From the NCBI GenBank assembly GCA_965215765.1, contig OZ244118.1, forward strand, positions 2,484,598-2,548,597: DNA of 64,000 nucleotides, in the 5' to 3' direction. Both the position numbers and the translations under genes were made by a program. This DNA is from an uncultured candidatus Porisulfidus sp. GTDB lineage: Bacteria; Pseudomonadota; Gammaproteobacteria; Poriferisulfidales; Oxydemutatoraceae. Below are positions 1 to 39,522 of this stretch, piece by piece (position 1 is the first letter of the stretch; the number at the start of each line of letters is the position of its first letter). Below the pieces are notes generated by a model. The model saw only the letters and a list, made by a program, of their open reading frames with translations, searched no databases and was not told where the DNA came from.

Positions 1-3000
1 GATGCCACCCCCAGTGCAGCGTCAATCCACCTCTCGAATTCCAGTTTGCACGGACTGCATGCGGGGCAACGGGAACATCCGTAAGCGCCCGGAGCACGGG
101 CAGCATGCGGGAGTGCCCGAAATGCCAAATTTGCGTATCCCAATCCAGATACACGCCAGCTACCCTGCAAAGATTGACAGGCAATATCAAACACTTCATT
201 TGCTCTACAGTGCGCAAACCACTGCCCTGTACAGTGCCGTCATTCCCGCCTACGAGGCTGTCCCCGTCGCCCAGCTTGCTGGCATAGCTGCGGGCTATCG
301 TGCCACCGTTGACTCCGACCAGCCTGCCCGACAAATCAGTTCCTCCTACAGCACCAGTGCTATAGGCACTTCTGACCAAGCCGCTGTTTATTCCCGCCAG
401 TCCACCTGTCTGACTGCCTCCGGTCACTGCGCCTTGTGCATAACTGTTAGCGATGGTTCCCTTGTTTACTCCCGCCAGCCCACCTGCCTGACTGCCTCCG
501 GTCACTGCGCCTTGTGCATAACTGTTACCGATGGTTCCCTTGTTTACTCCCGCCAGCCCGCCTGCCTGACTGTCTCCGGTCACTGTGCCTTGTGCATAAC
601 TGTTACCGATGGTTCCCTTGTTTTCGCCGACCAGACCCCCAACTTGATCCTTCCCACTCACCGTGATTCCAGGACTACGGCCACTCACGATGCTGGCGTT
701 GCTTTCGTTCACGCCCACCAGACCGCCCACCTGACTGTCTCCGGTCACTGTGCCTTGTGCATAACTGTTACCGATGGTTCCCTTGTTTTCGCCGACCAGA
801 CCCCCGACCTGGTTCTTTCCACTCACACGTGAGTCCAAGACTACATGGCTACTCACGATGCTGGCGTTGCTTTCGTTCACACCCACCAGACCGCCTACCT
901 GACTGTCTCCGGACACTATGCTTTTTGCATAACTGTTACCGATGGTTCCCTTGTTTACGCCGACCAGACCCCCAACTTGATCCTTCCCGCTCACACGTGA
1001 TTCCAGGACTACATGGCCACTCACGATGCTATGGCTACTCACGATGCTGGCGTTGCTTTCGTTCACACCCACCAGACCGCCTACCTGACTGTCTCCGGAC
1101 ACTATGCTTTTTGCATAACTGTTACCGATGGTTCCCTTGTTTACGCCGACCAGACCCCCAACTTGATCCTTCCCACTCACACGTGCATATCTGGCTGTAT
1201 GGACATTCACGATCCTGGCTTCGTTCACACCCACCAAGCCCCCAACCCCGCGGGCTGCTCCGACAACATGGATCTGCGCGTGGTATTTTCTGTCATGGTT
1301 CTCCATGTAGCTGTCACTGATGGTGCCGCCAAGGTGCCAACCCACCAGACCACCCACGTACGCGTAGCCCCATATAGAGCCGGTCCCGGCCACATCTCCA
1401 TTCGCATGGCTGGAAGTGACCGAACCCCTGTTTTTGCCCACCAGACCTCCGACTTGATTGCTTCCTGTTACTCCCCCCGACGCATGACTGCCCACAATCG
1501 TGCCGCCGTCATTCTGACCTACCAGCCCACCGGCAACGGCAACCCATGTGCCGCTAGAGTTCTCCCCAACCCTTACCGCCGACGCGCTGTTGCGGATGAC
1601 ACCGCCCTGATTCAGGCCAACCAGCCCACCGATGGTTCTGTGCCCGTCAACCTTGCCATCAACCTCGCTGTCCTCAATCGTCCCTTGATTGTTCAGCCCA
1701 ACCAGAGAACCAACATTCACTCCGCCTTCCGTCAAAAAACCCACCAGCTTCACACGCTTCAGCAAGCCACCCTGCAGCGTACCAAACAGCCCTATATTCT
1801 CGAGTGCTTCGTCTGCTACGTTGACCTTCAAATTGGAAATCTTGTAACCGTTGCCATCATAAGTGCCAGAAAAATCCTTGATCGGTGCAAAACCGTTTTT
1901 CCAGCCATGCGTCATCGTCGTCGCGTCTATATCTTTGATTTGGATGTAGTGCGACTGGGGCGATGCATCCATGTCGCGCAAATGGCACAGGTTTTCTACC
2001 TGGTAGGGATCACTTTCAGTTCCGGAACCTGCCATGGCCTGCGAACTTGCAGCACACGCGAGCTCAGGATCCATATAGGGAAATTGGCTGTTGTTGTAAT
2101 AGGTGTCTCCGTAATTGAGAAGGTTGAAGGCTCTTTCGTTCGCATAAATCCCGCCCATTCCCCAACCGTATACCTCGCATGTTCCGAGTCCAGGGGCCGG
2201 CTGGGAAGTTTGAACCCCTATCACCAAGCCGGTCTTTTTATAAAACGCGGATGAGCCGGACGCTCCATGCGTAGGAGAGATGCCCTTATACGTTAAACTC
2301 AGGCGCCCGCACACTCCTTCGCAGAAAGACAGGATGTCTTTCTTGACGCCGCGCCGTACTCTTTCAAACTCACCCCACTGCTGAGGCCTGGTGCCAGCGT
2401 GGTGTACGGAGTAACCACTGAAATTATCGGCAGTGCGGGTCTCCCACCCCAACAATTTATAATCTCCGCTCTTGAACCCGACAAGTCGTCCAACAAGACG
2501 CACAATCCCCCAATCCGCACTATCACCACCAGCCACAAAGTATGCATCTGGTTTCTTTCCTGCCACGAACCTCACACCAAAGGCGTATGAACCACCAAGA
2601 GTAGTGACGAAGAATCGCAAAAACGGTTTGTCCACAGCGTTAGTGTCCACTTCAGGTAAAAGGTGAAGCGTTGTCAGAATGTAGGGAGCTCCGTCACCCG
2701 ACTTGTTCTTTATAAAACTCCCAGTCCCGCAGCCACCATCATCGTCAGAATGGCGGCACAATACTACGACACCTTTGGTTACATCCCGCACGTAAGCCGG
2801 GCTCTCGCTGTTTACATAGTTATTCTTACCGGGTAGACGCCAGGTGCCTGCGCGCACACAACTGCCGGCTTGCCCCAGAGGCGCCAGATTCCTGATTCCC
2901 TCCCCGTGTAAAACCCCGTTGTTATCCTTGAATGTGTGGCTCACTTTTTCGACCGAAAAAGGAAAATCGCCTGGCTCCAGGTGGTAACTGTCCGGAACCC

Positions 3001-3593
3001 AAAACTCTATGACAACGGTATCACCAGACACCGGGAACGCCACAAAGCTGCCATCATTACGTGACAAGCCGCGGCCCGTGTACTCTACGAGCCCTTCATT
3101 GCTGTCTCCGGCGGGGGCATAGACATTCACCGACATACCCGGGTCAAGGGGAAAACCAGAAAAATATAACCACAGCCGCAGGGCAGACGGAGAGCGAATC
3201 TGCGCCTGCCAGACATCAAGGCCGTCTTCCTGTTTGACCAGCGCCCAGTTGGAACGCCTTAACCGGACGTCCCGGGCAATGCTGGTGTAGTTGACCGTTG
3301 TCGCACGGAGCAGTACACGAATTTGCTCCTGTTCCCGGGTGCTGAAAGATCCCAAGTTCAGTTGCTGTGCGCGGTCAGGATACAGAGTTCGAGTGGCTTC
3401 CCGGGCATTCCTCCCCTCCGAAAAGGGATGGGACGCGAAGCCTTGTTCTGCCAGAGATTCCTGATCCTGGCCGAAAACGAGTGAGCTCGACGTGATGATA
3501 GATACACCCACGAACAGCCACTTCAGCCAACCATGGCTGCCGGAAATCTGCGTATCCGGAAATCTGAAATCTGCTTCTTTCATTGTGAATGCT
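1..3593 (-). CDS. Paralog A (3'-truncated by window edge): N-terminal ~1197 aa of a giant secreted S1-protease/GLUG-repeat/FN3 protein. Signal peptide MKEADFRFPDTQISGSHGWLKWLFVGVSIITSSSLVFG, then pro-region, protease domain and first GLUG block
   Basis: Manual reverse-complement translation from ATG (revcomp of cat at 3591-3593) runs open through at least ~1.9 kb checked by hand, with no stop found, and parallels paralog B residue by residue. It is not in the ORF track, probably because its stop lies beyond position 1. The leader upstream is identical to that of the other paralogs. Confidence 0.6.
300..1250 (-). repeat. Intragenic GLUG-motif coding repeat block 1 of paralog A (~78-81-bp units)
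   Basis: Periodic near-identical DNA units, seen as the repeating ADQTPNL/SGHCALCITVTDGSLV antisense pattern in plus ORF 2..832. Sense translation gives VGGLVGxNxGxIxNSYAxGxVxGDSQ units. Bounds are approximate. Confidence 0.45.
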
Positions 3594-3970
3594 TAGGAGC
3601 CATGCGGGCGGAGAAAAGAGAGCCTGACCACCCTGAGACATAAAATTCCCTGCACCGCATTCGCTATCTGTTCTCCATGGCTGCGCACTGAGCGATCCTC
3701 TGGCTCTGACCTTCACTCACTCTCTGATGTCCCAGTACGGCTGTACGCGGGCAGGATACAGAGTTCGAGTGGCTTCCCGGGCATTCCTCCCCTCCGAAAA
3801 GGGATGGGACGCGAAGCCTTGTTCTGCCAGAGATTCCTGATCCTGGCCGAAAACGAATGAACTCGACATGATGATGGGCACACCCACGAGCAGCCACTTC
3901 AGCCAACCATGGCTGCCGGAAATCTGCGTATCCGGAAATCTGAAATCTGCTTCTTTCATTGTGAATGCTT
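3594..3970 (-). repeat. One extra tandem copy of the ~377-bp 5' module (5'UTR + ATG + signal peptide + first ~70 codons) upstream of paralog A
   Basis: The sequence is nearly identical to the 5' end of gene A plus its leader. The junction motif ggctgtacgc|gggcaggatacag is present. Confidence 0.8.
3717..3959 (-). CDS. Upstream mini-ORF (80 aa) duplicating the signal peptide and N-terminus of the giant protein, ending ...LYPARVQPYWDIRE*
   Basis: ORF track entry MKEADFRFPDTQISGSHGWLKWLLVGVPIIMSSSFVFGQDQESLAEQGF... It has the same leader and start context as the real gene. The stop comes from leader sequence after the duplication junction. Confidence 0.35.
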   Translation of the reverse strand: MKEADFRFPDTQISGSHGWLKWLLVGVPIIMSSSFVFGQDQESLAEQGFASHPFSEGRNAREATRTLYPARVQPYWDIRE

Positions 3971-4149
3971 AGGAGCCATGCGGGCGGAGAAAAGAGAGCC
4001 TGACCACCCTGAGACATAAAATTCCCTGCACCACATTCGCTATCTGTTCTCCATGGCTGACGCACTGAGCGATCCTCTGGCTCTGACCTTCACTCACTCT
4101 CTGATGTCCCAGTACGGCTGTACGCGCCGAAAAATCACTTAGTTGGTTA

Positions 4150-4178
4150 ATTGTACAAAATAACGCCCAATCCGGCAA
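4150..4178 (-). promoter_or_regulatory. Sigma70-like promoter TTGCCG-N17-TACAAT for paralog A, preceded by an AT-rich UP-like tract
   Basis: Revcomp of 4150-4178 reads TTGCCGgattgggcgttattttgTACAAT. The same element with exact 17-nt spacing is conserved upstream of all five gene starts. It lies ~15 nt distal to the module junction, so there is a single promoter per gene. Confidence 0.45.
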
Positions 4179-4316
4179 ATTATTATAAGAAGATACCGGC
4201 CTCATCCGATCGAGAAACCCCGAAACCAGCATCGTGGTGTGCAGTTTTATTTATTGGCTTTTTGGTCTCCAGGGGAATGAATCAGTGACAATATGTCGGT
4301 ACTGCGACTTCTTGTT

Positions 4317-4469
4317 TTTAACCGCGAAAAACGTAAAAGTTGGTATTTGTAATTCGTATGATTTCAGTTTTGAGGTGGCTTCCAAAGTTCACCGAAAGCC
4401 CCAATTCAAGGCCTGTTGTTTTAAGACAATTCAATAGCTGTGCCTCATGTTCATCAGTAATGTTTGTCA
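4317..4469 (-). other. Possible 50-aa small ORF (MTNITDEHEAQLLNCLKTTGLELGLSVNFGSHLKTEIIRITNTNFYVFRG) in the AT-rich intergenic segment
   Basis: Manual translation. Intact copies also lie at 15759..15911 and 41485..41637. The ORF is truncated by an indel in the intergenic regions near 28100-28290 and 54060-54230. No start-site signals were identified. Confidence 0.12.
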
Positions 4470-4519
4470 TGGCAGATATAGTCAGGCTTATGGTCTTGCT
4501 TTAAAGGTTCACCCTCTGT

Positions 4520-5222
4520 GCCTTAAAAGAAATGCTCCTTGTGGAGAATTTCTTCTCCAGACACTCCTGATGCACTGCCTCAAGGAAAATACACCTCACT
4601 TCCCTGAACCGCATGGCATTCATCAGAAAACAAAATCTTTTCGTGTTTTTCGCGGTTATTAAACTCGTGATTTATAGTTCTCTCGCCAGTTGCCCGGGCT
4701 CTTCACCAAAGGAATGCCCCTTATGGAAAACTCCTTCTCCGGACGCTCCTGATGCACTGCCTCAAGGAAAATACACCTCACTTCCCTGAACCGCATGGCA
4801 TTCATCAGGAAATAAAAATTTTCGTATATTTCGCGGTTATTAAACTCATGGTTCATAGCTCTCTCGCCAGTTGCCCGGGCTCTTCACCAAAGGAATGCCC
4901 CTTATGGAAAACTCCTTCTCCGGACACTCCTGATGCACTGCCTCAAGGAAGATACACCTCACTTCCCTGAACCGCATGGCATTCATCAGAAAACAAAATC
5001 TTTTCGTGTTTTTCGCGGTTATTAAACTCGTGGTTCATAGCTCTCTCGCCAGTTGCCCGGGCTCTTCACCAAAGGAATGCCCCTTATGGAAAACTCCTTC
5101 TCCGGACACTCCTGGCGCACTGCCTCAAGAAAACCACAACCCCACTTCTCTGAACCGCATGGCATTCATCAGAAAACAAAATCTTTTCGTGTTTTTCGCG
5201 GTTATTAAACTCGTGTATGCCC
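4520..5222. repeat. Four tandem copies of a ~186-bp unit directly downstream of the paralog B stop codon
   Basis: Unit ...ctcctgatgcactgcctcaaggaaaatacacctcacttccctgaaccgcatggcattcatcagaaaacaaaatcttttcgtgtttttcgcggttattaaactcgtg... repeats with ~183-186-bp period. The most distal copy is degenerate. The unit begins ~20 nt after the stop. Confidence 0.8.
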
Positions 5223-8200
5223 TCAGCGAATCATGCCGCCCAGGAATACCCTCAGGCGCAATTTCTTGACGTGATGCGGGCCCGGCCTCGGCGTTGTCGG
5301 GATCTCGGGATCCCAGTTGATAAATTGACTCACTCCTGGCAGCTCAGCCACGCTGTCCAGGGGGAATGCCCGGACTTCGTACGCGACACCACCCTGCAGC
5401 CCCGTAAATTCCGTCCTGACGGCTCCCCCGGGTGTCGGCATCGCAACAGACTGTTCCTCTATCAGTTCCCCGTATGAAAGCAGTTGTACCCGATACCCCA
5501 AGCCGAGCAATATTCCATCAACCGGGGCTCCGAAATCAGCATGATCCGCAGTGCGTCCGTAGCCATCATTTCCCGAATATTGCAAGTGTACCTGCACACG
5601 ACCATTCGCCTTGTGCATCAGCTGCATGGCCAATGTTCCCTCAAGAACGTCGAGCAAGGTAAATGCTGCAGTGCTCATCGCGCCCGTTCCGGCACGGTTG
5701 ACTGCCCGGAGCGAATAGCGTATCTGCTCTCCTCCTGCGTGCTTCTTGCGCAGCTGCGCCAGGACATGGCCTGACAACACATAAGAAGTGGCGGTTCCCG
5801 AGACGGGGTGGCTTTTTCCGTCCACAAAAAGCTGGTAGCTGTCTATCATCGCCCCGTTGCTGCTCGCCGCTTCCCAACTCAGGTTCACCTGATCTACGGA
5901 CTTCCACCTGGCTCGCAAGCCCGAAGGTCTGCCAGGCACCGCTATGGTGCTGAACGCGCTCCTGTTTTCGGATGCCTGGGCAGGCTCCCCGGTGCCCGCC
6001 CGGTTGCGCGCATAGACCTGTAACGAATAGCTTCTCTTCGGCAGCAAGTCGGTGATCTCAATCTCGGCGTCAAAAGCACCTGCCGAGAAAAAGGTCTCGG
6101 TGCTGCGTCCTCCAGCACTCACAACCACCACGTAGCCAAAACCGGAGCCTGCAACGCGATCAGAAGAAGACGCAAGCGCATCACCCGCCAGGGGAGCGCA
6201 ATCGTCATGTCCCATGACCATCAACACCAGGCGCGCAGTGGTTTGGCCGGGCACCAGATCCGTTATCGTCGTCGCGCCCGGAAGACCGGGCAAATAGAAG
6301 TGACCGGCTGCCGGATAACCAGCGATATCTCCGCGCACAGCGCGAAGACGGTACGGGTGGGGGCAAGCCCCCTGTCTGTTTTTCCGAAACTCAGCCAGAA
6401 AATCTCCGTTGAAGTCAAAAGTCGGTGCTGTGACTTCCCGTATTGTTCCTGCCAGCTCAAGTTCGTAGGAATCAACCGCTGAACTTCCCGCCGCCCACGT
6501 GAAGCGCAAATGATCCGGAGATTCCCAGCTCACCGCCAAATCAACCGGTGTGGCAGGAATGTCAGCAATCGCGCGCAGCAAGGGTAACGTACGGGTATTG
6601 CCAAAATGCCAGACTTCCGGTTCCCAGCCGGCATAGGTCGTGGCATCTGCGCATCTCTGCCCCACAGCAGTCGGGCAACGCAACTGGGTCAGAGTGCGAG
6701 GTGAACTGCCGCCCGACGAGCCATTGCCCACCAAAGCTGCCTGTGCAGACACGGGTGCGTAACTGCGATCAATCACCGCATCCGGAGCAGAATAACCCGC
6801 CAGACTCCCGGTGCTGCCCGATTCCCCAACAACCCTGTTCGCTGCATAGCTGTCCTGTATGCGGCGGATATTGTTTCCGACCAGTCCCCCGATGGAGAAA
6901 TGACCCCGCACCTCACCGAGTGCATAGCTCGCATGGACAGAACCGGAGTTGATGCCCACCAGTCCGCCAATACGGCTATCTCCGCTGACCGACACGTCGG
7001 CATAGCTGTAGGCAATGGTGCTTCCGCTGTAGCCGACCAGACCGCCGGCGCGCGAGCCGTCCACAGCGATGGCCGAACCTGTCGCGTAACAGTGCAAAAT
7101 CGTGCTTCCCTGGCTATAGCCAACCAGACCGCCAGCATTGTCCCGCCCTTCACCCGAGACGCGCACCGCCGCATCGGCACTGCTGTACAAAATAGTGGCT
7201 CCCAGAGCCAGTCCGGCCAGACCACCGGCAGACTCAAGCGCGCGTACTTGCGAAGCCCTCACCGTGCTGCCCACGACCCGACCTTTTGCCTTCACATAAC
7301 CGACCAGACCGCCGACGTACCTGCCCCCGTCAACCTCGGCACTGGCACCACTGTCAATCAGCAAACCCCCGTTGCCACCCGCCAGCCCGCCAATGTTGGC
7401 TCCAGCTCTGCTGCCGGAAACCTGTGCAGACCTCACGACACTGTTCATGACGGTTCCGTCGTTAAAGCCGACCAAGGCTCCGACGCTGTTTTTTCCTTTT
7501 ACCCACGCATCAAGGAGCACCACTCCCTTGGCGATCCCGTCTTCTGCGAGTCTGGAAAACAGGCCAACCGTATCCGTCTCCGGGCGGTTAATGTGCAGAG
7601 CAGAGATTTGCCGCCCTGCCCCGTCGAAAGCGCCTGAAAAAGGCTCTATCGGATGAAAGCCGGCACCGCCTGACCACCCCCGACTCGGGCTGGCGTCAAT
7701 GTTTGCCACCTGCACATAGTGAGCGTACAGATCAGAGCGCACATCCTGCAGTTGGCACAGCGTGGCAATTTGCCACGGGTTGTTGTTGCTGCCGTCACCC
7801 GATGCACTCTTCAGGCCTTTGCCGACGCATCCCGGAAAGCTGGTCACCGCACGGATCGTTGACGGCGATCCGGTGCCCACCGTGTTATGGGCGAAGGCTT
7901 CCAGCCGATATGCAAAGGCACTCTCAAGCCCCGTAAATTCCATCGTGACCGGGCTCAGAGGATTCCCCAGCGGAATGTCGCGTTCTTCAACCAGCTCCCC
8001 GGACGCATACAGACGTATCCGGTAAGCCAGGTGCAAAGCCATGGCTTCCGCTGACGTTGCGTAATCAGCGTCAACCGGCCTGCGGCCATAGCCATCATTG
8101 GCAGGGGCTGTAAAGCTGAGTCTCAGCGTGGAGACCCCCTGCTCCACGCGCATATCAGCCGGAGAATCAGGAACATCCAGCAGGCGCACGGAAACACGGG

Positions 8201-11200
8201 CAGCCTCGCCAACACCATAAAGGTTGTAGCCACGAACCGTTAAAAAGAGCGTATTCCCGCCTTCATAACGGGCGCGCAGCTTCTGCAACCAGTCCGATCC
8301 TCCCACGTAGTACAACGATGCGGTTTCCTCAGCAGCGATCGATGGAGCCTCAATCCGGTAAGCGATCAGTTCTTTGGTGTGAAGCGGAGGCTCCCAACGC
8401 AGCAACAAGGAAGACGGGGATTTCCACTGCGCGAGCAGGCGCAAGGGTTTGCCAGGAGTCTCAAAGCCCCGCAGAACCGGCAGTGTCCTGTAATCTCCGA
8501 AAGACCAGATCTCGGCACTCCAGCCTGAGTATGTTGACCTTCCCGCACACGCCAGGCCGGGGGCAGTGGGGCAACGCAGTTGCTGCAGCGTCCGCAAGAA
8601 GCCTGATCCCTGCCCTGCGTCATCTGCCACAAAAGGCATGCCGCCGCCATTGCCGCGAGGCAACGCTGCCGCATAGCTGTCGGTGATGCCTCCCGGACTG
8701 CTGCCGGCAAAACTTCCAGGCTGTCCGGCTCCGGATACCGACCCTGCCGCGTAGCTGCGACTGACGGCGCCCTGATTGTCCGCCACAAGACCCGCGACCA
8801 GACCTTCCCCGGTCACAAAAGCTGTTGTGTAACTGTCAGTCACCGAGCCCAGGTTGTCTGCGACCAGACCACCCGCCCGAACTGCTCCTGACACCGAGCC
8901 TCCGGCATAGCTTGTATCAATACTCCCGGTTACCAGATTTCTCCCGACCAGGCCACCCGCTACTTGGCCTCCCGGCTCTGCCGCCAGCTGTGCCGCGCTG
9001 CCGCTAATCGTGCCTGCGTTGATACCGACGAGTCCTCCCGCCACTTGCCCGCCAAAAAGTGAGCCCGTCACCCCGCTGTTCACGATCCTTCCTCCCTCAT
9101 TCCTGCCCGCCAGGGCTCCCACGTTGACGCTTCCCCAAAGCTGCGCGTTCACCAGCACGACCTGCTGCAACAGACCGCCCTGAAGCTGCGCAAACATGCC
9201 GACATCTTCCATCGCCTCAGAGCGCACCTTTAAATGGAAAATCTGATGACCGGCACCATCAAGGGAACCGGAAAAATCAGCAATCGGCGCAAAGCCTTCT
9301 CCGGCTCGCCAGTCCCGGGATGGACCTGCCTCAATATCGCTTGCCAGCCGGTAGTGGGCTACAGGGGCAGAACGAATACCTTGCAATTGGCACAGCGTGG
9401 CAATCTGCCAGGGATCGTCCTCGCTGCCCGAGCCGCCCGAACCGCCTGCCGACATCAGGGCTTCCCCGTCGCACTGCCAGGGACGGGTAAATGCCGACAG
9501 GAAAAATGACGACCCTTCTCCAACATTGTTATAGGGTGTTGCCACCACTTCATAGAAGCTGTCGCTTGCCAGACCCGAAAATTCCACAACTGCGGATGTT
9601 TCGCCGGCTGTGTGCGCAAGCTCCCGTTCCTGCACGAGTTCTCCCCCGGCGTACAACCGTACCCGGTAACCCAGACCTGCGGGAACCCCGACACCCGTGT
9701 ATCCGTAAGCCGGGTCTTCCGGTGATTGGCCGTAGCCGTCGTCAGCCGGAGCCATAAGCAACACCTGCAGCGAAAATGCCTGCGCCGATGCCCGAACAAC
9801 CGTCAATTTGCCTGGGGCTCTCAGCAGCCTGATCACAACCGTCGTCGCTTCGCTCATGCCATGACGGTTATATCCACGTACGCTGACTTGCACGGTACTG
9901 CCCCTATATTCGGAACGGAGGCTTTGCAACAGGTGCCTGCCGAGCGTAAAAGATGCGGATCTCGTTTCCAGGGAACGCCCTGCCACCTCCACCCAATAGC
10001 CGGCGTTCAGACTTCCTGTTTTCGCAGCTGTCCAGTTCAGTTCCAGTTCACCTTCCAGGTTCCATTTCGCCTGCAGGCGCGAAGGGGGGGCAGGTGGCAC
10101 TGTTCGCAGGGCGCGATGAGCCGGAAGCGTCTGCTCGTCCCCGAAATACCAGACCTGTGTGCTCCAGCCGGAATAACTGACCGCTCCCTGACACGTGTCT
10201 CCCGGCAAAAGAGGGCACTGTAATTGCGCCAGCGTGCGGGAAAAATTGTTTTCTGTGGCATCCTCTTCCCCGCTGCCCACGAGTTGCAGCGCGCTGCTGC
10301 CGACACCCGGCTCCAGCGCGTAATTTGCAGCCATATCGGTGCCTTCGGAATACCCCACCAGCATGCCCGCCTGATTGTTCCCGCTAACCAGACCAGCCGC
10401 ATAACTGTCGTCAATCCTGATGTTGTTGTCGGTGCTGCGCTCACTGTTCCCCGCCAAGCCGCCCACCTGCTCATTTCCGCTTACCGAACCAGTCGCATAG
10501 CTGTCGTCAATCGAGCCGTACCTGCTTTCTCCCACCAAGCCGCCCACCTGCTCATTTCCGCTGACCGCTCCGGTCGCATGGCTTCTGAGGATTGACCCTG
10601 AGCTGAGGCCCGCCAGACCACCCACACTATTTCCTTCGCTGACAACCGTGCTGTCCGAGTGGCTGTCAACTATGGAATTGGAATTGTGGTTACCCGCCAG
10701 CCCGCCCACATCTTCTACCCCGCTGACCGCTCCTGCCGAATAAGAGCCGCTTATAAAGCCATAGTTATTACCCACCAGTCCGCCTACATATTGATGCCCG
10801 CTCACCGTTGACTGCGCGTGGCTGTGATAGATCGAAGCTTCGTTGGCTCCCACCAGTCCACCAACACTGCTTGCGCCGCTCACACCTCCTCTCGCGTACG
10901 AACTGCGTATCCTCGCGCCCCACGCATTCCAGCCCACCAGTCCGCCTATTGTGTTGCCGTGCCACCGGACAGTGGTCGTTCCGACAACGGCAGACTCCGA
11001 ATGGCTGAGCTCGATCAGCCCATGGTTCTCACCCGCTACTCCTCCCACACGTCTCCGACCGCCTATCAACCCCGTCACCGTGCTGCCATTGATGCTTCCA
11101 TTTGCCTCAACGCTTCCTGCCAGGGCTCCTGTTGCATCTCTGCCCCGTACTGTGACATTCACGAGTGCCAGCCTTTGCAGGGCACCCCCGCTGAGCTTCC

Positions 11201-14200
11201 CGAACAGCCCGACATGGTCTGTTTGCCCAGGATTGATCAAAAGATTCAGAACGCTGTGACCACTCCCGTCCAGAGAGCCGGAAAAAAATTCAATCGGAGG
11301 AAAACCCTTTCCGTCTCGCCACTCGTGGCTTTGCTTCGCGTCTATATCGTTTGCCAGCCGATAATGCGCTGCCGTGTCGTAACGCATTTCATGCAACTGG
11401 CAAAGTGTACCGACCTGCCAGGAGTCATCCTCGCTGCCAGAGCCTGCTGCTGTTATCACCGCTGCCCGTGGACACGCCTCAACGTAGGTGAAAATCGGTG
11501 CTATCACCGTTGTTGAGCCTGTGCCCGCCTTGTTTCTGGCAAACACCCTGACTTCGTACCTGGAACCACCTTCCAGGCCTGAAAATTCCACTACGGTCGA
11601 ACTTGACCATTCCTGCTGCGTCATGCGCCGATCTTCTTTCAACCGGCTTTTTGAAAACAGTTGCACGTGGTATGCGAGATCCAGAGCAACTCCGCCTGCC
11701 GGCTCCCCGTACGCGCTGCTGCCCAGAGCGTGTCCGTAGCCGTCAGTAGCAGCCTCGGTAATGGTGACCCGTATTGTCGACAGCCCCGAAGCTGTCTGGG
11801 TCCCCACCACCCCCGGAACTTTCATCAAATGGAAACTTCCCGACGCTGCATCTCCCGCAACGCCTCCTTTTACGCCGCGTATGGAATAGTGAATTTCACT
11901 GCCGCTGGCGTAACGCTCACGCAATTCAGCCATCAATGTATCGTCAAGCGAGAAACGGGATACCTTGGTGTCTCGAATGATTCCGCCCACCTCCACCTCA
12001 AAGGAACTCACGGCAACTCCTTGATGCCACCCCCAGTGCAGCGTCAATCCATCCGTCAAATTCCAGCTTTCCCGGACTGCAATCGGTGCAACGGGAACAT
12101 CCGCAAGCACCCGGAGCACAGGCAGCATGCGGAAGTGCCCGAAGTGCCAAATCCGCGTATCCCAACCCAGATACACGCCAGCTGCCCGACAAAGATTGAC
12201 GGGCAACATCGAGCACTTCATTTGCTCCACGGTGCGCAAATCACTGCCCTGTACTGCACCGTTATCCTTGCCCACCAGGCTGTCCCCGTCGCCCAGCTTG
12301 CTGGCATAACTGCGGGCTATCGTGCCACCGTTGACTCCGACCAGCCTGCCCGACAAATCAGTTCCTCCTACAGCACCAGTGCTATAGGCACTTCTGACCA
12401 AGCCGCTGTTTACTCCCGCCAGTCCACCTGTCTGACTGCCTCCGGTCACTGCACCTTGTGCGTAGCTGTTGCTGAGGCTTCCTTTGTTTTCGCCGACCAG
12501 TCCGCCTGTCTGACTGTCTCCGGTCACTGTGCCTCGTGCATAACTGTCACTGATGTTTCCTTTGTTTTCGCCGACCAGACCCCCGACCTTGTTCTTTCCA
12601 CTCACACGTGCTTGTCCTGCTGTGCTGCCATTCACGACGCTGGCATTTTCCAGGTTCACTCCTACCAGCCCACCTGTCTGACTGCCTCCGGTCACTGCGC
12701 CTTGTGCATGGCTGTTCACGATGGTTCCCTTGTTTACTCCCGCCAGCCCGCCTGTCTGACTGTCTCCGGTCACTGCGCCTCGTGCATAACTGTTACCGAT
12801 GCTTCCCTTGTTTCCGCCGACCAGACCCCCAACCTTGTTCTTTCCACTCACACGTAATTCCAGGACTGCATGGCTACTCACGATGCTGGCGTTGCTTTCG
12901 CTCACACCCACCAGACCGCCCACCTGACTGTCTCCGGCCACTGTGCCTTGTGCATAACTGTTACCGATGTTTCCCTTGTTTACGCCGACCAGACCCCCAA
13001 CTTGATCCTTCCCACTCACACGTGCATATCTGGCTGTATGGCCATTCACGATCCTGGCTTCGTTCACACCCACCAAGCCCCCAACCCCGCGGGCTGCTCC
13101 GACAACATGGATATTCGCGTAGCGGTTGCTGTCATGGCCCTTCATGTAGCTGTCACTGATGGTGCCGCCAAGGTGCCAACCCACCAGACCACCCACGTAC
13201 GCGTAGCCCCATATAGAGTCGGTTCCGGTCACATCTCCATTCGCATGGCTGGAAGTGACCGAACCCCTGTTTTTGCCCACCAGACCTCCGACTTGATTGC
13301 CTCCTGTTACTGCCCCCACCGCTTGACTGCCTACAATCGTGCCACCGTCGTTCTGACCCACCAGACCTCCGGCAACATACGTGTCGCTAGAGTTCTCCCC
13401 AACCCTTACCAATGCCACGCTGTTGCGGATGACACCGCCCTGATTCAGACCAACCAGCCCACCGATGGTTCTGTCCCCGTCAACCTTGCCATCAACCTCG
13501 CTGTCCTCAATCGTCCCCCGATCGTTCAGCCCAACCAGAGAACCGACATTCGCTCCGCCTTTCGTCACAAAATTCACCAGCTTCACGCGCTTCAGCAATC
13601 CACCCTGCAGCATGCCAAACAGCCCTATATTCTCGAATGCTTCGTCTGTTGTGTTGACCTTCAAATTGGAAATCTTGTAACCGTTGCCATCATAAGTGCC
13701 AGAAAAATCCTTGATCGGTGTAAAACCGTTTTTCCAGCCATGCGTCATCGTCGTTGCGTCTATATCCTTGATCTGGACGTAGTGCGACTGGGGCGATGCT
13801 TCCACATCGCGCAAATGGCATGCGTTTTCTACCTGGTAGGGATCACTTTCAGTTCCGGAACCTGCCATGGCCTGCGAACTTGCAGCACACGCGAGCTCAG
13901 GATCCATATAGGGAAATTGGCTGCCGTTGTAATAGGTGTCTCCGTAATTGAGAAGGTTGAAGGCTCTTTCGTCCGCATAAATCCCGCCCATTCCATCACC
14001 GTACATAATGCATGTTCCGTATCCAGGGATCGGCTGGGATGTTTGAATCCCTATCACCAAGCCGGTCTTTTTATAAAATGCGGATGAACCGGACGCTCCA
14101 TGCGTAGGAGAGATGCCCTTATACTTTAAACTTATGCTCCCGCACACTCCTTCGCAGAAAGGCAGGATGCCTCCGTCGCCCCATAGTCTTTCAAACTCAC

Positions 14201-15401
14201 CCCACTGCTGAGGCCTGGAGCCAGCGTGGTGTACGGAGTAACCACTGAATTTAACGGTAGTGCGGGTCTCCCACCCCAACAATTTATAATCTCCGCTCTT
14301 GAACCCGACAAGCCGTCCAACAAGACGCACAATCCCCCAATCCCCACCATCACCACCATGCTTCCGTGGTTTCTTTCCTGCCACGTACCTCATACCGAAG
14401 GCGTATGAACCACCAAGAGTAGTGACGAAGAATCGCAAAAACGGCTTGTCCGCAGCGTTAGTGTCCACTTCAGGGAAAAGGTGAAACGCTGTCAGAATGT
14501 AGGGAGCTCCATCACCCGACTTGTTCTTTATAAAAGTCCCAGTCCCGCAGCCACCACCATTGTCAGAATGGCTGCACAATTTTACGACACCTTTGGTTAC
14601 ATCCCGCACGTAAGCCGGGCTCTCGCTGTTTACATAGTTGTTCTTACCGGGTCGACGCCAAGTGCCTGCGCGCACGCAACTGTCGGCTTGCCTCGGAGGC
14701 GCCAGGTTCCTGATTCCCTCTCCGTATAAAACCCCGTTGTTATCCTTGAATGTGTGCCCCACTTTTTCGACCGAAAAAGGAAAATCGCCTGGTTCCAGGT
14801 GGTAACTGTCCGGAACCCAAAACTCTATGACAACGGTGTCACCAGACACCGGGAACGCCACAAAGCTGCCATCATTACGTGACAAGCCGCGACCCGTGTA
14901 CTCTACGAGCTCTTGATTGCTGTCTCCGGCGGGTGCATAGACATTCACCGACATACCCGGGTCAAGGGGAAAACCAGAAAAATATAACCACAGCCGCAGG
15001 GCAGACGGAGAGCGAATCTGCGCCTGCCAGACATCAAGACCATCTTCCTGTTTGACCAGTGCCCAGTTGGAACGCCTTAACCGGACGTCCCGGGCAATGC
15101 TGGTGTAGTTGACCGTTGTCGCACGAAGCAGTTCACGAATGCGCTCCTGTTCCTGCGTGCTGAAAGATCCCAAGTTCAGTTGCTGTGCGCGGGCAGGATA
15201 CAGAGTTCGAGTGGCTTCCCGGGCATTCCTCCCCTCCGAAAAGGGATGGGACGCGAAGCCTTGTTCTGCCAGAGATTCCTGATCCTGGCCGAAAACAAAT
15301 GAACTCGACATGACGATGGGCACACCCACAAGCAGCCACTTCAGCCAACCATGGCTACCGGAAATCTGCGTACCCGAAAATCTGAAACCTGCTTCTTTCA
15401 T
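5223..15401 (-). CDS. Paralog B: giant secreted protein, 3392 aa. Signal peptide, pro-region, trypsin-like S1 serine protease domain, then 4x (linker + GLUG-motif repeats + FN3-like domains)
   Basis: Uninterrupted 10.2-kb ORF. It has a hydrophobic N-terminal signal (WLKWLLVGVPIVMSSSFVFG|QDQ) and S1 catalytic motifs (CGTGTFI...ILTAFH, DWGIVRL, GASGSSAFY). There are dozens of GGLVG GLUG units and FN3 signatures (YEVRVFARNKAGTG, YSLQVYARNRAGTG). The stop TGA is revcomp of tca at 5223-5225. Confidence 0.9.
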   Translation of the reverse strand: MKEAGFRFSGTQISGSHGWLKWLLVGVPIVMSSSFVFGQDQESLAEQGFASHPFSEGRNAREATRTLYPARAQQLNLGSFSTQEQERIRELLRATTVNYTSIARDVRLRRSNWALVKQEDGLDVWQAQIRSPSALRLWLYFSGFPLDPGMSVNVYAPAGDSNQELVEYTGRGLSRNDGSFVAFPVSGDTVVIEFWVPDSYHLEPGDFPFSVEKVGHTFKDNNGVLYGEGIRNLAPPRQADSCVRAGTWRRPGKNNYVNSESPAYVRDVTKGVVKLCSHSDNGGGCGTGTFIKNKSGDGAPYILTAFHLFPEVDTNAADKPFLRFFVTTLGGSYAFGMRYVAGKKPRKHGGDGGDWGIVRLVGRLVGFKSGDYKLLGWETRTTVKFSGYSVHHAGSRPQQWGEFERLWGDGGILPFCEGVCGSISLKYKGISPTHGASGSSAFYKKTGLVIGIQTSQPIPGYGTCIMYGDGMGGIYADERAFNLLNYGDTYYNGSQFPYMDPELACAASSQAMAGSGTESDPYQVENACHLRDVEASPQSHYVQIKDIDATTMTHGWKNGFTPIKDFSGTYDGNGYKISNLKVNTTDEAFENIGLFGMLQGGLLKRVKLVNFVTKGGANVGSLVGLNDRGTIEDSEVDGKVDGDRTIGGLVGLNQGGVIRNSVALVRVGENSSDTYVAGGLVGQNDGGTIVGSQAVGAVTGGNQVGGLVGKNRGSVTSSHANGDVTGTDSIWGYAYVGGLVGWHLGGTISDSYMKGHDSNRYANIHVVGAARGVGGLVGVNEARIVNGHTARYARVSGKDQVGGLVGVNKGNIGNSYAQGTVAGDSQVGGLVGVSESNASIVSSHAVLELRVSGKNKVGGLVGGNKGSIGNSYARGAVTGDSQTGGLAGVNKGTIVNSHAQGAVTGGSQTGGLVGVNLENASVVNGSTAGQARVSGKNKVGGLVGENKGNISDSYARGTVTGDSQTGGLVGENKGSLSNSYAQGAVTGGSQTGGLAGVNSGLVRSAYSTGAVGGTDLSGRLVGVNGGTIARSYASKLGDGDSLVGKDNGAVQGSDLRTVEQMKCSMLPVNLCRAAGVYLGWDTRIWHFGHFRMLPVLRVLADVPVAPIAVRESWNLTDGLTLHWGWHQGVAVSSFEVEVGGIIRDTKVSRFSLDDTLMAELRERYASGSEIHYSIRGVKGGVAGDAASGSFHLMKVPGVVGTQTASGLSTIRVTITEAATDGYGHALGSSAYGEPAGGVALDLAYHVQLFSKSRLKEDRRMTQQEWSSSTVVEFSGLEGGSRYEVRVFARNKAGTGSTTVIAPIFTYVEACPRAAVITAAGSGSEDDSWQVGTLCQLHEMRYDTAAHYRLANDIDAKQSHEWRDGKGFPPIEFFSGSLDGSGHSVLNLLINPGQTDHVGLFGKLSGGALQRLALVNVTVRGRDATGALAGSVEANGSINGSTVTGLIGGRRRVGGVAGENHGLIELSHSESAVVGTTTVRWHGNTIGGLVGWNAWGARIRSSYARGGVSGASSVGGLVGANEASIYHSHAQSTVSGHQYVGGLVGNNYGFISGSYSAGAVSGVEDVGGLAGNHNSNSIVDSHSDSTVVSEGNSVGGLAGLSSGSILRSHATGAVSGNEQVGGLVGESRYGSIDDSYATGSVSGNEQVGGLAGNSERSTDNNIRIDDSYAAGLVSGNNQAGMLVGYSEGTDMAANYALEPGVGSSALQLVGSGEEDATENNFSRTLAQLQCPLLPGDTCQGAVSYSGWSTQVWYFGDEQTLPAHRALRTVPPAPPSRLQAKWNLEGELELNWTAAKTGSLNAGYWVEVAGRSLETRSASFTLGRHLLQSLRSEYRGSTVQVSVRGYNRHGMSEATTVVIRLLRAPGKLTVVRASAQAFSLQVLLMAPADDGYGQSPEDPAYGYTGVGVPAGLGYRVRLYAGGELVQERELAHTAGETSAVVEFSGLASDSFYEVVATPYNNVGEGSSFFLSAFTRPWQCDGEALMSAGGSGGSGSEDDPWQIATLCQLQGIRSAPVAHYRLASDIEAGPSRDWRAGEGFAPIADFSGSLDGAGHQIFHLKVRSEAMEDVGMFAQLQGGLLQQVVLVNAQLWGSVNVGALAGRNEGGRIVNSGVTGSLFGGQVAGGLVGINAGTISGSAAQLAAEPGGQVAGGLVGRNLVTGSIDTSYAGGSVSGAVRAGGLVADNLGSVTDSYTTAFVTGEGLVAGLVADNQGAVSRSYAAGSVSGAGQPGSFAGSSPGGITDSYAAALPRGNGGGMPFVADDAGQGSGFLRTLQQLRCPTAPGLACAGRSTYSGWSAEIWSFGDYRTLPVLRGFETPGKPLRLLAQWKSPSSLLLRWEPPLHTKELIAYRIEAPSIAAEETASLYYVGGSDWLQKLRARYEGGNTLFLTVRGYNLYGVGEAARVSVRLLDVPDSPADMRVEQGVSTLRLSFTAPANDGYGRRPVDADYATSAEAMALHLAYRIRLYASGELVEERDIPLGNPLSPVTMEFTGLESAFAYRLEAFAHNTVGTGSPSTIRAVTSFPGCVGKGLKSASGDGSNNNPWQIATLCQLQDVRSDLYAHYVQVANIDASPSRGWSGGAGFHPIEPFSGAFDGAGRQISALHINRPETDTVGLFSRLAEDGIAKGVVLLDAWVKGKNSVGALVGFNDGTVMNSVVRSAQVSGSRAGANIGGLAGGNGGLLIDSGASAEVDGGRYVGGLVGYVKAKGRVVGSTVRASQVRALESAGGLAGLALGATILYSSADAAVRVSGEGRDNAGGLVGYSQGSTILHCYATGSAIAVDGSRAGGLVGYSGSTIAYSYADVSVSGDSRIGGLVGINSGSVHASYALGEVRGHFSIGGLVGNNIRRIQDSYAANRVVGESGSTGSLAGYSAPDAVIDRSYAPVSAQAALVGNGSSGGSSPRTLTQLRCPTAVGQRCADATTYAGWEPEVWHFGNTRTLPLLRAIADIPATPVDLAVSWESPDHLRFTWAAGSSAVDSYELELAGTIREVTAPTFDFNGDFLAEFRKNRQGACPHPYRLRAVRGDIAGYPAAGHFYLPGLPGATTITDLVPGQTTARLVLMVMGHDDCAPLAGDALASSSDRVAGSGFGYVVVVSAGGRSTETFFSAGAFDAEIEITDLLPKRSYSLQVYARNRAGTGEPAQASENRSAFSTIAVPGRPSGLRARWKSVDQVNLSWEAASSNGAMIDSYQLFVDGKSHPVSGTATSYVLSGHVLAQLRKKHAGGEQIRYSLRAVNRAGTGAMSTAAFTLLDVLEGTLAMQLMHKANGRVQVHLQYSGNDGYGRTADHADFGAPVDGILLGLGYRVQLLSYGELIEEQSVAMPTPGGAVRTEFTGLQGGVAYEVRAFPLDSVAELPGVSQFINWDPEIPTTPRPGPHHVKKLRLRVFLGGMIR
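12250..13600 (-). repeat. Intragenic GLUG-motif repeat block 1 of paralog B
   Basis: ~26-27-aa units QVGGLVGxNKGxIxNSYAxGTVTGDSQTGGL are repeated more than 12 times. DNA units are ~80 bp. Bounds are approximate. Confidence 0.5.
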
Positions 15402-15590
15402 TGTGAATGCTTAGGAGCCATGCGGGCGGAGAAAAGAGAGCCTGACCACACTGAGACATAAAATTCCCTGCACCACATTCGCTATCTGTTCTCCATGGCT
15501 GACGCACTGAGCGATCCTCTGGCTCTGACCTTCACTCACTCTCTGATGTCCCAGCACGGCTGTACGCACAGGGAAATCACTAGTGGGTTA

Positions 15591-15619
15591 ATTGTACAAA
15601 ATAACGCCCAATCCGGCAA
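15591..15619 (-). promoter_or_regulatory. Sigma70-like promoter TTGCCG-N17-TACAAT for paralog B
   Basis: attgta at 15591-15596 and cggcaa at 15614-15619 on the plus strand give a 17-nt spacer. The element sits ~190 nt upstream of ATG 15401 with no extra modules in between. Confidence 0.45.
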
Positions 15620-15964
15620 ATTATTATTAAGAAGATACCGACCCCATCCGACCGGAAAACCCCGAAAACAGCACCAAGGTGTACTGTCTTATTTGTGAGC
15701 TTTTTGGTCTATAAGGGGGTGAATCAGTGGCAATAGTCGGCACTGCGACTTCCTGTTTTTAACCGCGAAAAACGTGAAAGTTGGTATTTGCAATTCGTAT
15801 GATTTCAGTTTTGGGGCAGCTTCCAAAGTTCACCGAAAGCCCCAATTCAAGGCCTGTTGTTTTAAGACAATTCAACAGTTGTGCTTCATGTTCATCAGTA
15901 ATGTTTGTCATGGCAGATATAGTCAGGCTTATGGACTTGCTTTAAAGGTTCACCCTCTGTGCCT

Positions 15965-16309
15965 TGAAAGGAATGCTCCTTTCAGAAAACTCCTTCTCCA
16001 GACACTCCTGGCACACTGCCCCAAGTAAGCCACACCTCATTTCCCTGAATCGCATGGCATTCATCAGAAAACAAAATCTTTTCGTGTTTTTCGCGGTTAT
16101 TAAACTCGTGGTTCATAGTTCTCTCGCCAGTTGCCCGGGCTCTTCACCAAAGGAATGCTCCTTATGAAAAATTCCTTCTCCGGACACTCCTGGCACACCG
16201 CCTCAAGAAAACCACAACCCCACTTCTCTGAATCACATAGCATTCATCAGAAAACAAAACCTTTTCGTGTTTTTCGTGTTTTTCGCGGTTATTAAACTCG
16301 TGTATGACC
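15965..16309. repeat. Two tandem copies of the ~186-bp unit directly downstream of the paralog C stop codon
   Basis: The same unit as at 4520..5222. The second copy has an internal ttttcgtg duplication. Confidence 0.75.
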
Positions 16310-19300
16310 TTAGCGAACCATACCGCCCAGGAACGCTCTCAGGCGCAATTTCTTGACGTGATGCGAACCTGGTCTCGGCGTCGTCGGAATCTCGGGATCC
16401 CAGTTGATAAACTGCCTCACTCCTGGCAGCTCAGCCGCGCTGTCCCGGGGAAATGCCCGGACTTCGTACGCAACACCACCCTGTAGCCCCGTAAATTCTG
16501 TCTTGACGGCTCCCCCGGGTGTCGGCATCGCAACAGACTGCTCCTCTATCAGTTCTCCGTACGAAGGCAGTTGTACCCGATACCCCAAGCCGAGCAATAT
16601 TCCGTCAACCGGGGCACCGAAATCAGCATGATCCGCAGTGCGTCCATAGCCATCATTTCCCGAATATTGCAAGTGTACCTGCACACGACCATTCGCCTTG
16701 TGTATCAGCTGCATGGCCAATGTTCCCTCAAGAACGTCGAGCAAAGTAAATACCGCCGTACCCATCACGCCCGCTCCGGCACGATTGACTGCCCAGAGCG
16801 AATAGCGTATCTGCTCTCCTCCTGCATACATATTACGCAGTTGCGCCAAGACATGGCCTGACAACACATAAGAAGTGGCGGTTCTTGTGCTCGGGTGGCT
16901 TTTCCCGTCCACGGAAAGCTGGTAGCTGTCTATCGTCGCCCCGTTGCTGCTCGCCGCTTCCCAACTCAGGTTCACCCGGTTTGTGGACTCCCACCTGGCT
17001 CGCAAGTCTGAAGGTTTGCCAGGTGCCGCTATGGTGCTGAACGCGCTCCTGTTTTCGGATGCCTGGGCGGGCTCCCCGGTGCCCGCCCGGTTGCGCGCAT
17101 AGACCTGTAACGAATAGCTTCTCTTCGGCAGCAAGTCGGTGATCTCAATCTCGGTGTCAAAAGCACCTGCCGAGAAAAAGGTCTCGGTGCTGCGTCCTGC
17201 GGCACTCACAACCACCACGTAGCCAAAGCCTGTGAGCATGGCGTAGTCAGGTGAAGTCGCCAGGGAAGCGCAATCGCCATATCCCATGGTCGTCAACACC
17301 AGGCGCGCAGTGGTTTGACCGGGCACCAGCTCCGTTATCGTCGTCGCGCCCGGAAGACCGGGCAAATAGAAGTAAGCGGCTGCCTGATAACCAGCGACAT
17401 CTCCGTGTATAGCGCGAAGACGGTACGGGTGGGGGCAAGCCTCTTGCTTGTTTTTCCGAAACCCGGCCAGAAAATCTCCGTCAAAGTCAAAAGTCGGAGC
17501 TGTGACCTCCCGTATTGTTCCTGCCAGTTCAAGTTCGTACGAATCAACCGCTGGACTTCCCGCCGCCCAAGTGAAGCGCAGATGATCCGGAGATTCCCAG
17601 CTCACCGCCAAATCAACCGGTGTGGCAGGAATATCGGCAAGCGCGCGCAGCAAGGGCAACGTGCGGGTATTGCCAAAATGCCAGGCTCCCGGTTCCCAGC
17701 CGGCATAAGTCGTGGCACCTGCGCATCTCTGCCCCGCCGCAGTCGGGCAACGCAGCTGGGTCAGAGTGCGAGGTGAAGAGCCATCCGTTGAGCCATTGCC
17801 CACCAAAGATGCCTGTGCAGACACGGGTGCGTAACTGCGATCAATCACCGCATCCGGAGCAGAATAACCTGCCAGACTCCCGGTGCTGCCCGACTCCCCA
17901 ACAACCCTGTTCACCGCATAGCTGTCCTGAATGCGGCGGATATTGCTTCCGACCAACCCCCCGGTGATGGAGCGACCCCGTACCTCACCGAGTGCATAGC
18001 TCGCATGGACAGAACCGGCGTTGATGCCCGCCAGTCCGCCAACACGATCAGCTCCGCTGACTGACACGTCGGCATAGCTGTAGGCAATGGTGCTTCCGCT
18101 GTAGCCGACCAGACCGCCGGCGCGCGAGCCGTCTACAACGATGGCCGAACCTGTCGCGTAACAGTGCAAAATCGTGCTTCCCTGGCTATAGCCAACCAGA
18201 CCGCCAGCATTGCCCCGCCCTTCACCCGAGACGCGCACCGCCGCGTCGGCACTGCTGTGCAAAATAGCGGCTCCCAGAGCCAGGCCAGCCAGACCGCCGG
18301 CAGACTCAAGCGCGCGTACTTGTGAATCCCTCACCGTGCTGCCCACGACCCGACCTTTTGCTTTCACATAACCGACCAGACCGCCGACGTATCTGCCCCC
18401 GTCAACCTCGGCACTGGCACCACTGTCAACCAGTAATCCTCCGTTGCCACCCGCCAGCCCGCCAATGTTGACTCCGGCTCTGTTGCCGGAAACCTGTGCA
18501 GACCTCACGACGCTGTTCATGACGGTTCCGTCGTTAAAGCCGACCAAAGCTCCGACGCTGTTTTTTCCTTTTACCCACGCATCAACGAGCACCACTCCCT
18601 TGGCGATCCCGTCTTCTGCGAGTCTGGAAAACAGGCCAACCGTATCCGTCTCCGGGCGGTTAATGTGCAGAGCAGAGATTTGCCGCCCTGCCCCGTCGAA
18701 AGTGCCTGAAAAGGACTCTATCGGATGAAAACCGGCGCCGCCTGACCACTCCCGACTCGGGCTGGCGTCAATATCTGCCACCTGCACATAGTGAGCGTGC
18801 AGATCAGAGCGCACATCCTGCAGTTGGCACAACGTGCCAATTTGCCACGGGTTGTTGTTGCTGCCGTCACCCGATGCACTCTTCAGACCCTTGCCTGCGC
18901 ATCCCGGAAAGCTGGTCACCGCCCGGATCGTTGACGGCGATCCGGTGCCCACCGTGTTATGGGCGAAGGCTTCCAGCCGATATGCAAAGGCACTCTCAAG
19001 CCCCGTAAATTCTATCGTGACCGGGTTCAGAGGACTCCCCAGCGGAATGTCGCGTTCTTCAACCAGCTCCCCGGTCGCATACAGACGTATTCGGTAAGCC
19101 AGGTGCAAAGCCATGGCTTCCGCTGACGTTGCGTAATCAGCGTCACCCGGTTTGCGACCGTAGCCGTCATTGGCCGGGGCTGTAAAGCTGAGTCTCAGCG
19201 TGGAGACCCCCGGCACCACGCGCATATCAACCGGAGAATCAGGAACATCCAGCAGGCGCACGGAAACACGGGCAGCTTCGCCAACACCATAAAGGTTGTA

Positions 19301-39142: not shown

Positions 39143-39276
39143 TGTGAATGCTTAGGAGCCATGCGGACGGAGAAAAGAGAGCCTGACCGCCCTGAGACAT
39201 AAAATTCCCTGCACCACATTCGCTATCTGTTCTCCATGGCTGACGCACTGAGCGTTCCTCTGGCTCTGACCTTCAC

Positions 39277-39522
39277 TTACTCTCTGATGTACCAGCACGG
39301 CTGTACGCAGGCAGGATACAGAGTTCGAGTGGCTTCCCGGGCATTCCTCCCCTCCGAAAAGGGATGGGACGCGAAGCCTTGTTCTGCCAGAGATTCCTGA
39401 TCCTGACCGAAAACGAATGAACTCGACGTGATGATGGATACACCCACCACGAGCAAGTACTTCAGCCAGACACGGCTGCCGGAAATCTGCGCATCCGGAA
39501 ATCTGAAACCTGCTTCTTTCAT
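39277..39522 (-). CDS. Upstream mini-ORF (81 aa)
   Basis: MKEAGFRFPDAQISGSRVWLKYLLVVGVSIITSSSFVFGQDQESLAEQGF... Confidence 0.35.
   Translation of the reverse strand: MKEAGFRFPDAQISGSRVWLKYLLVVGVSIITSSSFVFGQDQESLAEQGFASHPFSEGRNAREATRTLYPACVQPCWYIRE

Follow-up and report, generated by a model that had tools for sequence, protein, structure and literature searches.

Bacterial gene families whose members exchange sequence are known in several forms. In the opa genes of Neisseria and the bab, sab and hop genes of Helicobacter pylori, complete paralogs exchange short variable segments, giving mosaic genes that differ between closely related strains. Neisseria pilE/pilS, Borrelia vlsE/vls, Treponema tprK and Anaplasma msp2 combine one expression site with silent, truncated, promoterless donors. 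The tufA/tufB genes and the rRNA operons undergo concerted evolution by RecA-type conversion, with near-complete homogenisation of two to seven copies; gene conversion and concerted evolution in bacterial duplicated genes were reportedly reviewed by Santoyo and Romero in 2005. Here we describe an array of 10-kb genes in a 64,000-nucleotide stretch of DNA (hereafter the window; contig OZ244118.1, positions 2,484,598 to 2,548,597) from an uncultured candidatus Porisulfidus sp. The genes are mosaics of one another, and this structure is best explained by gene conversion, in which short tracts were repeatedly exchanged by homologous recombination between paralogs; the family has at least 14 members. 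To this reading we assign a probability of about 85%.

A mosaic array of giant paralogs

The window is a slice of the array and holds six co-oriented paralogs, A-F, arranged head-to-tail on the minus strand. Four are complete: B (5223-15401, 3392 codons, protein P0001), C (16310-26659, 3449 codons, P0004), D (28490-39142, 3550 codons) and E (41843-52558, 3571 codons, P0007). Each of these is an intact open reading frame (ORF) with an ATG, a common signal-peptide-like start and a common 157-bp upstream unit. The outer two are cut by the window ends. Paralog A (1-3583) is represented by its first 1194 codons, its ORF running out at the left end (full protein P0003, 3481 amino acids), and the frame of paralog F (54411-64000) is open to base 64000, with the 5' end outside the window (full protein P0005, 3548 amino acids). 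The proteins can be aligned end to end, and in the codon alignment pairwise DNA identity is 88.7-92.2% over shared columns.

The statistical tests used the 8991 columns that are ungapped in all five copies B-F. These columns include 530 biallelic sites that divide the copies two against three, and each of the ten possible splits is backed by 26-107 sites. A five-taxon tree accommodates just two such splits; the best single tree (B+F with 107 sites, D+E with 59) accounts for 166 of the 530 informative sites. Sites with the same split also lie together. Adjacent informative sites share a split 226 times, compared with 61.5 ± 7.3 after permutation (maximum 89 in 5000 permutations), and an index of the pairwise homoplasy (PHI) type is 0.374, compared with 0.553 ± 0.008 (z = -22; no value so extreme in 2000 permutations). 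For eight of the ten pairs, a GENECONV-style test gave a maximum concordant run that is longer than in any of 2000 permutations. The closest pair changes continually along the codon alignment, synonymous divergence (dS) ranges five-fold along the gene, from 0.09 to 0.47, and one topology for the whole gene clearly fails, with seven different splits taking the lead as one moves between 450-column windows. The Hudson-Kaplan minimum number of recombination events is 186, a value that we do not read as a number of events, since at 10% divergence it is inflated by recurrent mutation.

The pattern is present at silent sites. In codons whose amino acid is invariant, 172 synonymous informative sites back all ten splits, which excludes convergent protein evolution, and they cluster as well (46 same-split adjacencies, compared with 22.1 ± 4.1 permuted, maximum 40); convergent selection was therefore rejected as the cause of the mosaic. 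When sequences were simulated on one tree under strongly heterogeneous rates (gamma 0.5 times the local rates observed), about 52 conflicting informative sites arose (maximum 67) against 364 observed, and about 2 clustered ones (maximum 11) against 143. Homoplasy on one tree with rate heterogeneity cannot reproduce the conflicting sites and was rejected.

It is scarcely credible that the mosaic as a whole is an artefact of repeat mis-assembly, of alignment error in the internal repeats, or of homoplasy or convergent selection. The genes are repetitive, the source genome appears to be metagenome-derived, and the alignment of the GLUG-repeat region contains many gaps, all of which would favour such an artefact. 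Against it, the tests rest on ungapped five-way columns, the signal is equally strong in the unambiguously aligned C-terminal half, the synonymous sites agree, the simulations gave 7-fold fewer conflicting sites with almost no clustering, and a separately assembled contig, described below, reproduces the first 1700 nt of A exactly and the last 777 nt of B with 6 differences.

The patches that make up the mosaic are short. Runs of consecutive same-split sites span 6-190 bp, and the longest exact runs between paralogs measure 322 bp (C/D), 242 bp (B/F), 225 bp (B/C), 215 bp (D/E) and 213 bp (C/E). The longest, at 22130-22451 in C, is identical to 34388-34709 in D, and B and C begin with the same 225 bp (15177-15401 in B, 26435-26659 in C). 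Paralog D carries at 31563-31698 a sharply bounded alternative cassette of 136 bp, about 61% identical to B, C, E and F, which at this position are mutually 96-100% identical. By eye, the protein sequence of the D cassette matches that of paralog P0012, located elsewhere in the genome, without a difference, which amounts to two 'alleles' of one segment spread across loci; the same protein version was also seen by eye in many members on related contigs. Overall, the patches measure between tens of bp and about 320 bp; they are internal, with other relationships in both flanks. Conversion-type exchange fits short, internal patches with differently related flanks on both sides better than single crossovers do.

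The region that first drew attention lies near the 3' end of B. An initial annotation of the window had listed five variant peptides at 6350-6500, with F grouping with B there and with D and E elsewhere. All five peptides are present, but the B peptide (VMGHDDCAPLAGDALASSSDRVAGSGFGY) is encoded at 6132-6218, 130-370 bp away from that interval; its counterparts are at 17219-17290 in C, 29399-29485 in D, 42752-42838 in E and 55320-55406 in F. The grouping of F with B is borne out both in the peptide, where F is most similar to B (89.8% identity), followed by D (81.8%), E (75.0%) and C (64.4%), and in an adjoining tract of 242 bp in which B (6226-6467) and F (55414-55655) are without a mismatch. 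An 'AML' variant of the peptide is common to C and E. Compared with C, D and E, the F copy of the tract has 91.3-92.1% identity; within it, 16 informative sites unite B and F with none in conflict. Its edges are sharp: directly upstream, the variable sites of F switch to match C, D and E and not B. We place the interval 6350-6500 in this tract, and it is the best example of what the annotation meant.

Two of the illustrative details given with that grouping were inaccurate, although the observation is partly confirmed and its interpretation, recurrent segmental conversion among the copies, is supported. In the C-terminal-most GLUG block (columns 8401-9090), where F had been said to group with D and E, it is instead equidistant from all copies (identity of 92.8% with B, 92.8% with C, 92.0% with D and 93.8% with E), and the splits that contain F are few and mixed. 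F does group with E elsewhere: columns 6601-7050 contain 14 E+F sites, and over columns 1501-2000 the two copies are 96.2% identical. A stretch of more than 500 bp described as identical between D and E while C differs is 99% identical: D 35357-35866 has 5 mismatches in 513 columns with its E counterpart, which lies at 48791-49300 and not at 48840-49300, and the longest exact run inside it is 186 bp. C does differ there, at 21 sites from D.

Unequal crossing-over alone, with chimeras fixed at the birth of each gene and no later copying between established genes, appears quite improbable as the source of these patches. The copies are direct tandem repeats of an 11-13-kb unit with repeat-rich spacers, an ideal substrate for unequal exchange; the copy numbers of repeats of 377 bp, 182 bp and 78 bp differ between units, and neighbouring copies are slightly more similar than distant ones. 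Yet a single crossover would leave two long blocks per gene, whereas dozens of switches are seen, with patches of 10-320 bp flanked by other relationships, and the B/F tract and the D cassette are already internal patches whose two flanks are kept by the original partner. In addition, segment partners include paralogs outside the array, and internal patches distinguish two contigs that otherwise agree base for base over kilobases and have the same gene order (both described below). Unequal crossing-over probably contributes to the changes in copy number and in repeat units.

The genes also vary in their internal repeats. The 78-bp unit is present in 2.1 copies in D (34265-34424) and 3.2 copies in E (47621-47866), GLUG units of 78-252 bp vary in copy number in all paralogs, and further intragenic repeat areas lie at 12419-13058, 23481-24256, 35964-36759, 49433-50182 and 61600-62773. 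Such copy differences indicate that slippage or unequal exchange has acted within genes and not just between them.

A second contig, the wider family and the mode of exchange

Recent and recurrent exchange is indicated most strongly by a comparison of A and B with an 18,975-bp contig (L003; ENA assembly ERZ25071281) that is syntenic with the region of A and the 3' end of B. Paralog A and its counterpart show no differences in the first 1700 nt and 52 differences in the rest; these are clustered (variance/mean 7; 17 in one 100-nt window), and at 44 of the 52 the L003 base is present in a paralog of the window. The full-length A proteins of the two alleles are identical at 3279 of 3483 positions, the differences falling in six segments that are 73-88% identical and for which the best-matching paralog is not the same for both alleles. 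Paralog B differs from its counterpart in a patch at 6000-6402 (24 differences in 403 nt), which covers the flagged region, and further downstream, over the last 777 nt, at 6 positions (Fisher p = 2.5e-7 relative to the patch). Bases present in window paralogs account for 21 of these 30 differences, and the remaining 9 have a base found in none. Within the patch, the L003 counterpart of the variable peptide reads TTMGRDDCAPLPVDVLATSPDRVAGSGFGY and by eye combines pieces of C/D/E, F and D; it is a further recombinant form of the flagged peptide. Assembly chimeras were rejected, since L003 was assembled separately and yet shows exact agreement over kilobases.

A diversity-generating retroelement was also considered and rejected: the variant bases are mostly found in paralogs, and the spacers consist of repeats and a PDDEXK_3 fragment. 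No reverse transcriptase was noted in the window, where all ORFs of at least 200 amino acids lie in or antisense to the paralogs; no dedicated search was made.

The array is part of a larger family, whose members outside the window were analysed as proteins only. A protein search found at least 13 family matches on one 2,997,607-bp contig, including B, C, E and the full-length A and F. The family has at least 14 members in a genome of roughly 3.0 Mb; at about 14 copies of about 10 kb, we estimate that it occupies roughly 5% of the genome. Dozens more family proteins are found on related contigs. Among 14 source-genome paralogs, the nearest relative per 60-residue window switches in more than half of the steps, and the nearest relative of a segment is often a paralog outside the window. 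The 30 full-length members have two classes of N-terminal head (about 57% identical) and two types of C-terminal tail (about 65%), and all four combinations occur, which is the four-gamete result at the scale of modules.

Beyond this narrow lineage, the next-best proteins are 27-42% identical over 5-16% of the length. In a scan of species-representative genomes the sole match was a 2-kb contig, 79% identical, in a metagenome-assembled genome labelled Rhodobiaceae, probably a mis-binned fragment. Beside a family member in a related circular genome of 1.92 Mb lies a TsaD gene whose best named relatives, 57-59% identical, are from Gammaproteobacteria; this housekeeping gene suggests that the source is a deep-branching, uncultured member of that class.

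The occurrence of the family in several related genomes and contigs raises the question of whether the patches were imported from other strains, at the same locus, by allelic homologous recombination following transformation or transduction. The nine B differences with bases absent from window paralogs speak for such import, as does the match of only 85-96% to donors among known paralogs. By itself, allelic import cannot make two loci of one genome identical over 242-322 bp with differing flanks; at some point, sequence must have crossed between the loci. Moreover, most variant bases (44 of 52 for A, 21 of 30 for B) occur in paralogs within the genome itself. As the sole origin of the mosaic, import at the same locus is very improbable.

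In the mechanism that we favour, exchange between paralogs, the general homologous-recombination machinery would repeatedly pair one copy with another, since the copies are head-to-tail and about 90% identical. Stretches of tens to a few hundred bp would be copied or exchanged, with partners that include family members outside the array, and each gene would turn into a patchwork, its closest relative changing from one segment to the next. Some parts would be homogenised in this way, while variant patches such as the flagged, loop-like peptide would be re-dealt among intact genes; the protease domain, the most divergent part, would be homogenised least. The exchange may be non-reciprocal, as in true conversion, and would presumably depend on RecA-type recombination, and the resulting diversity may be selected because the proteins are exposed.

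Several points weigh against this interpretation. The patch donors that distinguish the two contigs match at just 85-96% among the available paralogs, and hence an exact donor is identified for none of the events. Reciprocal double crossovers, or chimeras formed by unequal-crossing-over duplication, would leave similar patterns, and some patches could come from allelic recombination with other strains and not from a paralog in the same cell. The GLUG-repeat part of the alignment (columns about 2500-3600) is gappy, and some of the signal there may reflect unit slippage and not inter-gene exchange. The PHI-type, GENECONV-style and simulation tests were our own re-implementations and not the published programs. 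As a caveat to the comparison of contigs, the stretches of A and B that are identical to L003 may be the product of recent transfer between strains.

Protein architecture and intergenic repeats

Each protein is predicted to have a signal-peptide-like N terminus, a variable serine-protease-like domain and four modules of GLUG repeats and fibronectin-III-like domains. The N terminus looks like a signal peptide when the sequence is read by eye. In paralog E, the Pfam GLUG profile matches in 7 stretches (E = 3.2e-73; 237.6 bits with a cut-off of 20.5 bits), and fibronectin-III domains are present. The proteins thus resemble GLUG-motif proteins (PF07581), with a likeness at the start of the modules to the N-terminal region of streptococcal IgA1/M26 proteins (PF05342, Peptidase_M26_N), which at 26.4 bits is below the cut-off of 27.7 bits. 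Unlike in the M26 IgA1-specific metallopeptidases, no M26 catalytic domain was found in the Pfam search; the non-catalytic N-terminal profile is the only one seen, below threshold.

The head domain is without a Pfam match, and a search of PDB sequences with the N-terminal 620 residues produced no meaningful match. Three residues, H78, D125 and S208 (within G-x-S-G), are invariant across 23 family sequences with 48-86% identity. An AlphaFold model of the head is of low confidence (predicted local distance difference test score 49; predicted template modelling score 0.54), and with this model all 50 matches listed by Foldseek in the PDB are chymotrypsin-fold proteases (E down to 5e-7; TM-score about 0.37-0.65), mostly serine proteases such as DegQ, HtrA, V8 and Esp. 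The head is likely to be a PA-clan protease, as predicted from the conserved residues and the model. It is the most divergent part of the gene (13600-14800 in B, with equivalents in A and C-F), with 63-80% nucleotide identity and dS up to 0.47. Its ratio of nonsynonymous to synonymous divergence (dN/dS) is 0.64-0.83, compared with 0.45 for the whole gene, and no window-averaged value exceeds 1. The head is the least homogenised part, and each paralog seems to keep its own protease head while the rest is shuffled. Bodies that are homogenised or shuffled, distinct protease-like heads and small, re-dealt loop-like peptides together suggest that the GLUG/fibronectin-III body is a shared scaffold on which each copy keeps its own protease specificity.

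The spacers are built from repeats. Tandem arrays of a 377-bp unit precede the genes at 3364-4117, 15182-15559, 26440-27928, 38923-41284 and 52339-53849, with 2 units before A, 1 before B, 4 before C, about 6.4 before D and 4 before E. The unit comprises 157 bp of upstream sequence and the first 220 bp of coding sequence, and each extra unit is an ORF of 80 amino acids (111 in one unit with an internal duplication) with a signal-peptide-like start followed by a stop. Such stacks of promoter-proximal 5' stubs before genes are unusual; L003 likewise has a single extra stub before A. A promoter and terminator scan upstream of B gave a result no better than that for shuffled sequence, and independent transcription of each copy is consequently not supported by the scan.

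A 182-bp repeat directly follows the stop codons, at 4526-5215, 15967-16302, 28341-28480, 41693-41835 and 54262-54403, with 3.8 copies after B, 1.8 after C and about 0.8 after each of D, E and F. Every spacer also contains an AT-rich segment of roughly 410 bp (4118-4526, 15560-15965, 27929-28339, 41285-41691 and 53850-54260), with 41% GC compared with 56.5% for the window. It encodes a 50-residue fragment that Pfam labels PDDEXK_3 in a related contig and that is probably a gene remnant duplicated with the unit. An Rfam search of the window returned no match. Plus-strand ORFs of 200-413 amino acids run antisense to the giant genes (2-832, 1013-2254, 11661-12857, 12870-14087, 20861-21676 and others). 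They lie in repeat regions, are without convincing family matches, and are most likely by-products of repeat composition and not genes.

Relation to known systems

The segmental exchange of sequence between paralogs is a well-known route by which bacterial families of surface or secreted proteins are diversified or homogenised. As in ectopic gene conversion, the genes of this array are recombinable paralogs with phylogenetic discordance beyond homoplasy, pair-specific fragments of identity with divergent flanks, and a signal at silent sites. In the library searched, we found no literature linking GLUG proteins with gene conversion, or giant GLUG proteins with symbionts. In practical terms, these genes have to be treated one segment at a time, as trees, orthology assignments and tests for selection will otherwise be misleading, and the family will break short-read assemblies.

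A more far-reaching proposal is that the array is an active diversification system with fast turnover for a large set of exposed giant proteins of protease and adhesin-like type, in which full-length, separately expressed copies continually re-deal short cassettes and whole head/tail modules among at least 14 loci, the cells of one population differ at these loci but are identical in the rest of the genome, and the 5'-stub arrays before most copies act as recombination entry points or expression switches. We regard this as unlikely. If exchange proves fast enough for the cells of one population to differ, the locus would resemble the antigenic-variation systems, but in a gammaproteobacterium that is environmental or symbiotic.

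With the cassette systems exemplified by pilE/pilS, vlsE/vls, tprK and msp2, the array shares segmental, templated replacement from related genomic sequences. It differs from them in that all four complete copies are intact ORFs and that exchange occurs all along the gene and not in a few defined variable regions. Antigenic variation of the cassette type was rejected: silent, truncated donors are absent among the complete copies, which are intact and have a common upstream unit. For high-frequency switching in a clonal population, the clustered differences from L003, largely templated by paralogs, are indirect evidence only. The resemblance to tufA/tufB and the rRNA operons is looser: the array has in common with them identity tracts and phylogenetic discordance along the gene, but its copies stay about 10% divergent, which results in a patchwork, and the protease-like head largely escapes homogenisation.

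The opa and bab/sab/hop families likewise have several complete paralogs per genome that undergo homologous exchange of short segments, and every paralog has a start codon and an export signal of its own. There is no sequence relationship between those families and the genes described here, which are about 10 kb long compared with about 1-2 kb, stand in direct tandem arrays and combine a protease-like domain with GLUG and fibronectin-III modules. To these systems the locus adds a further case, both large and very clean, from a family of 10-kb genes that is uncharacterised and confined to a narrow lineage.

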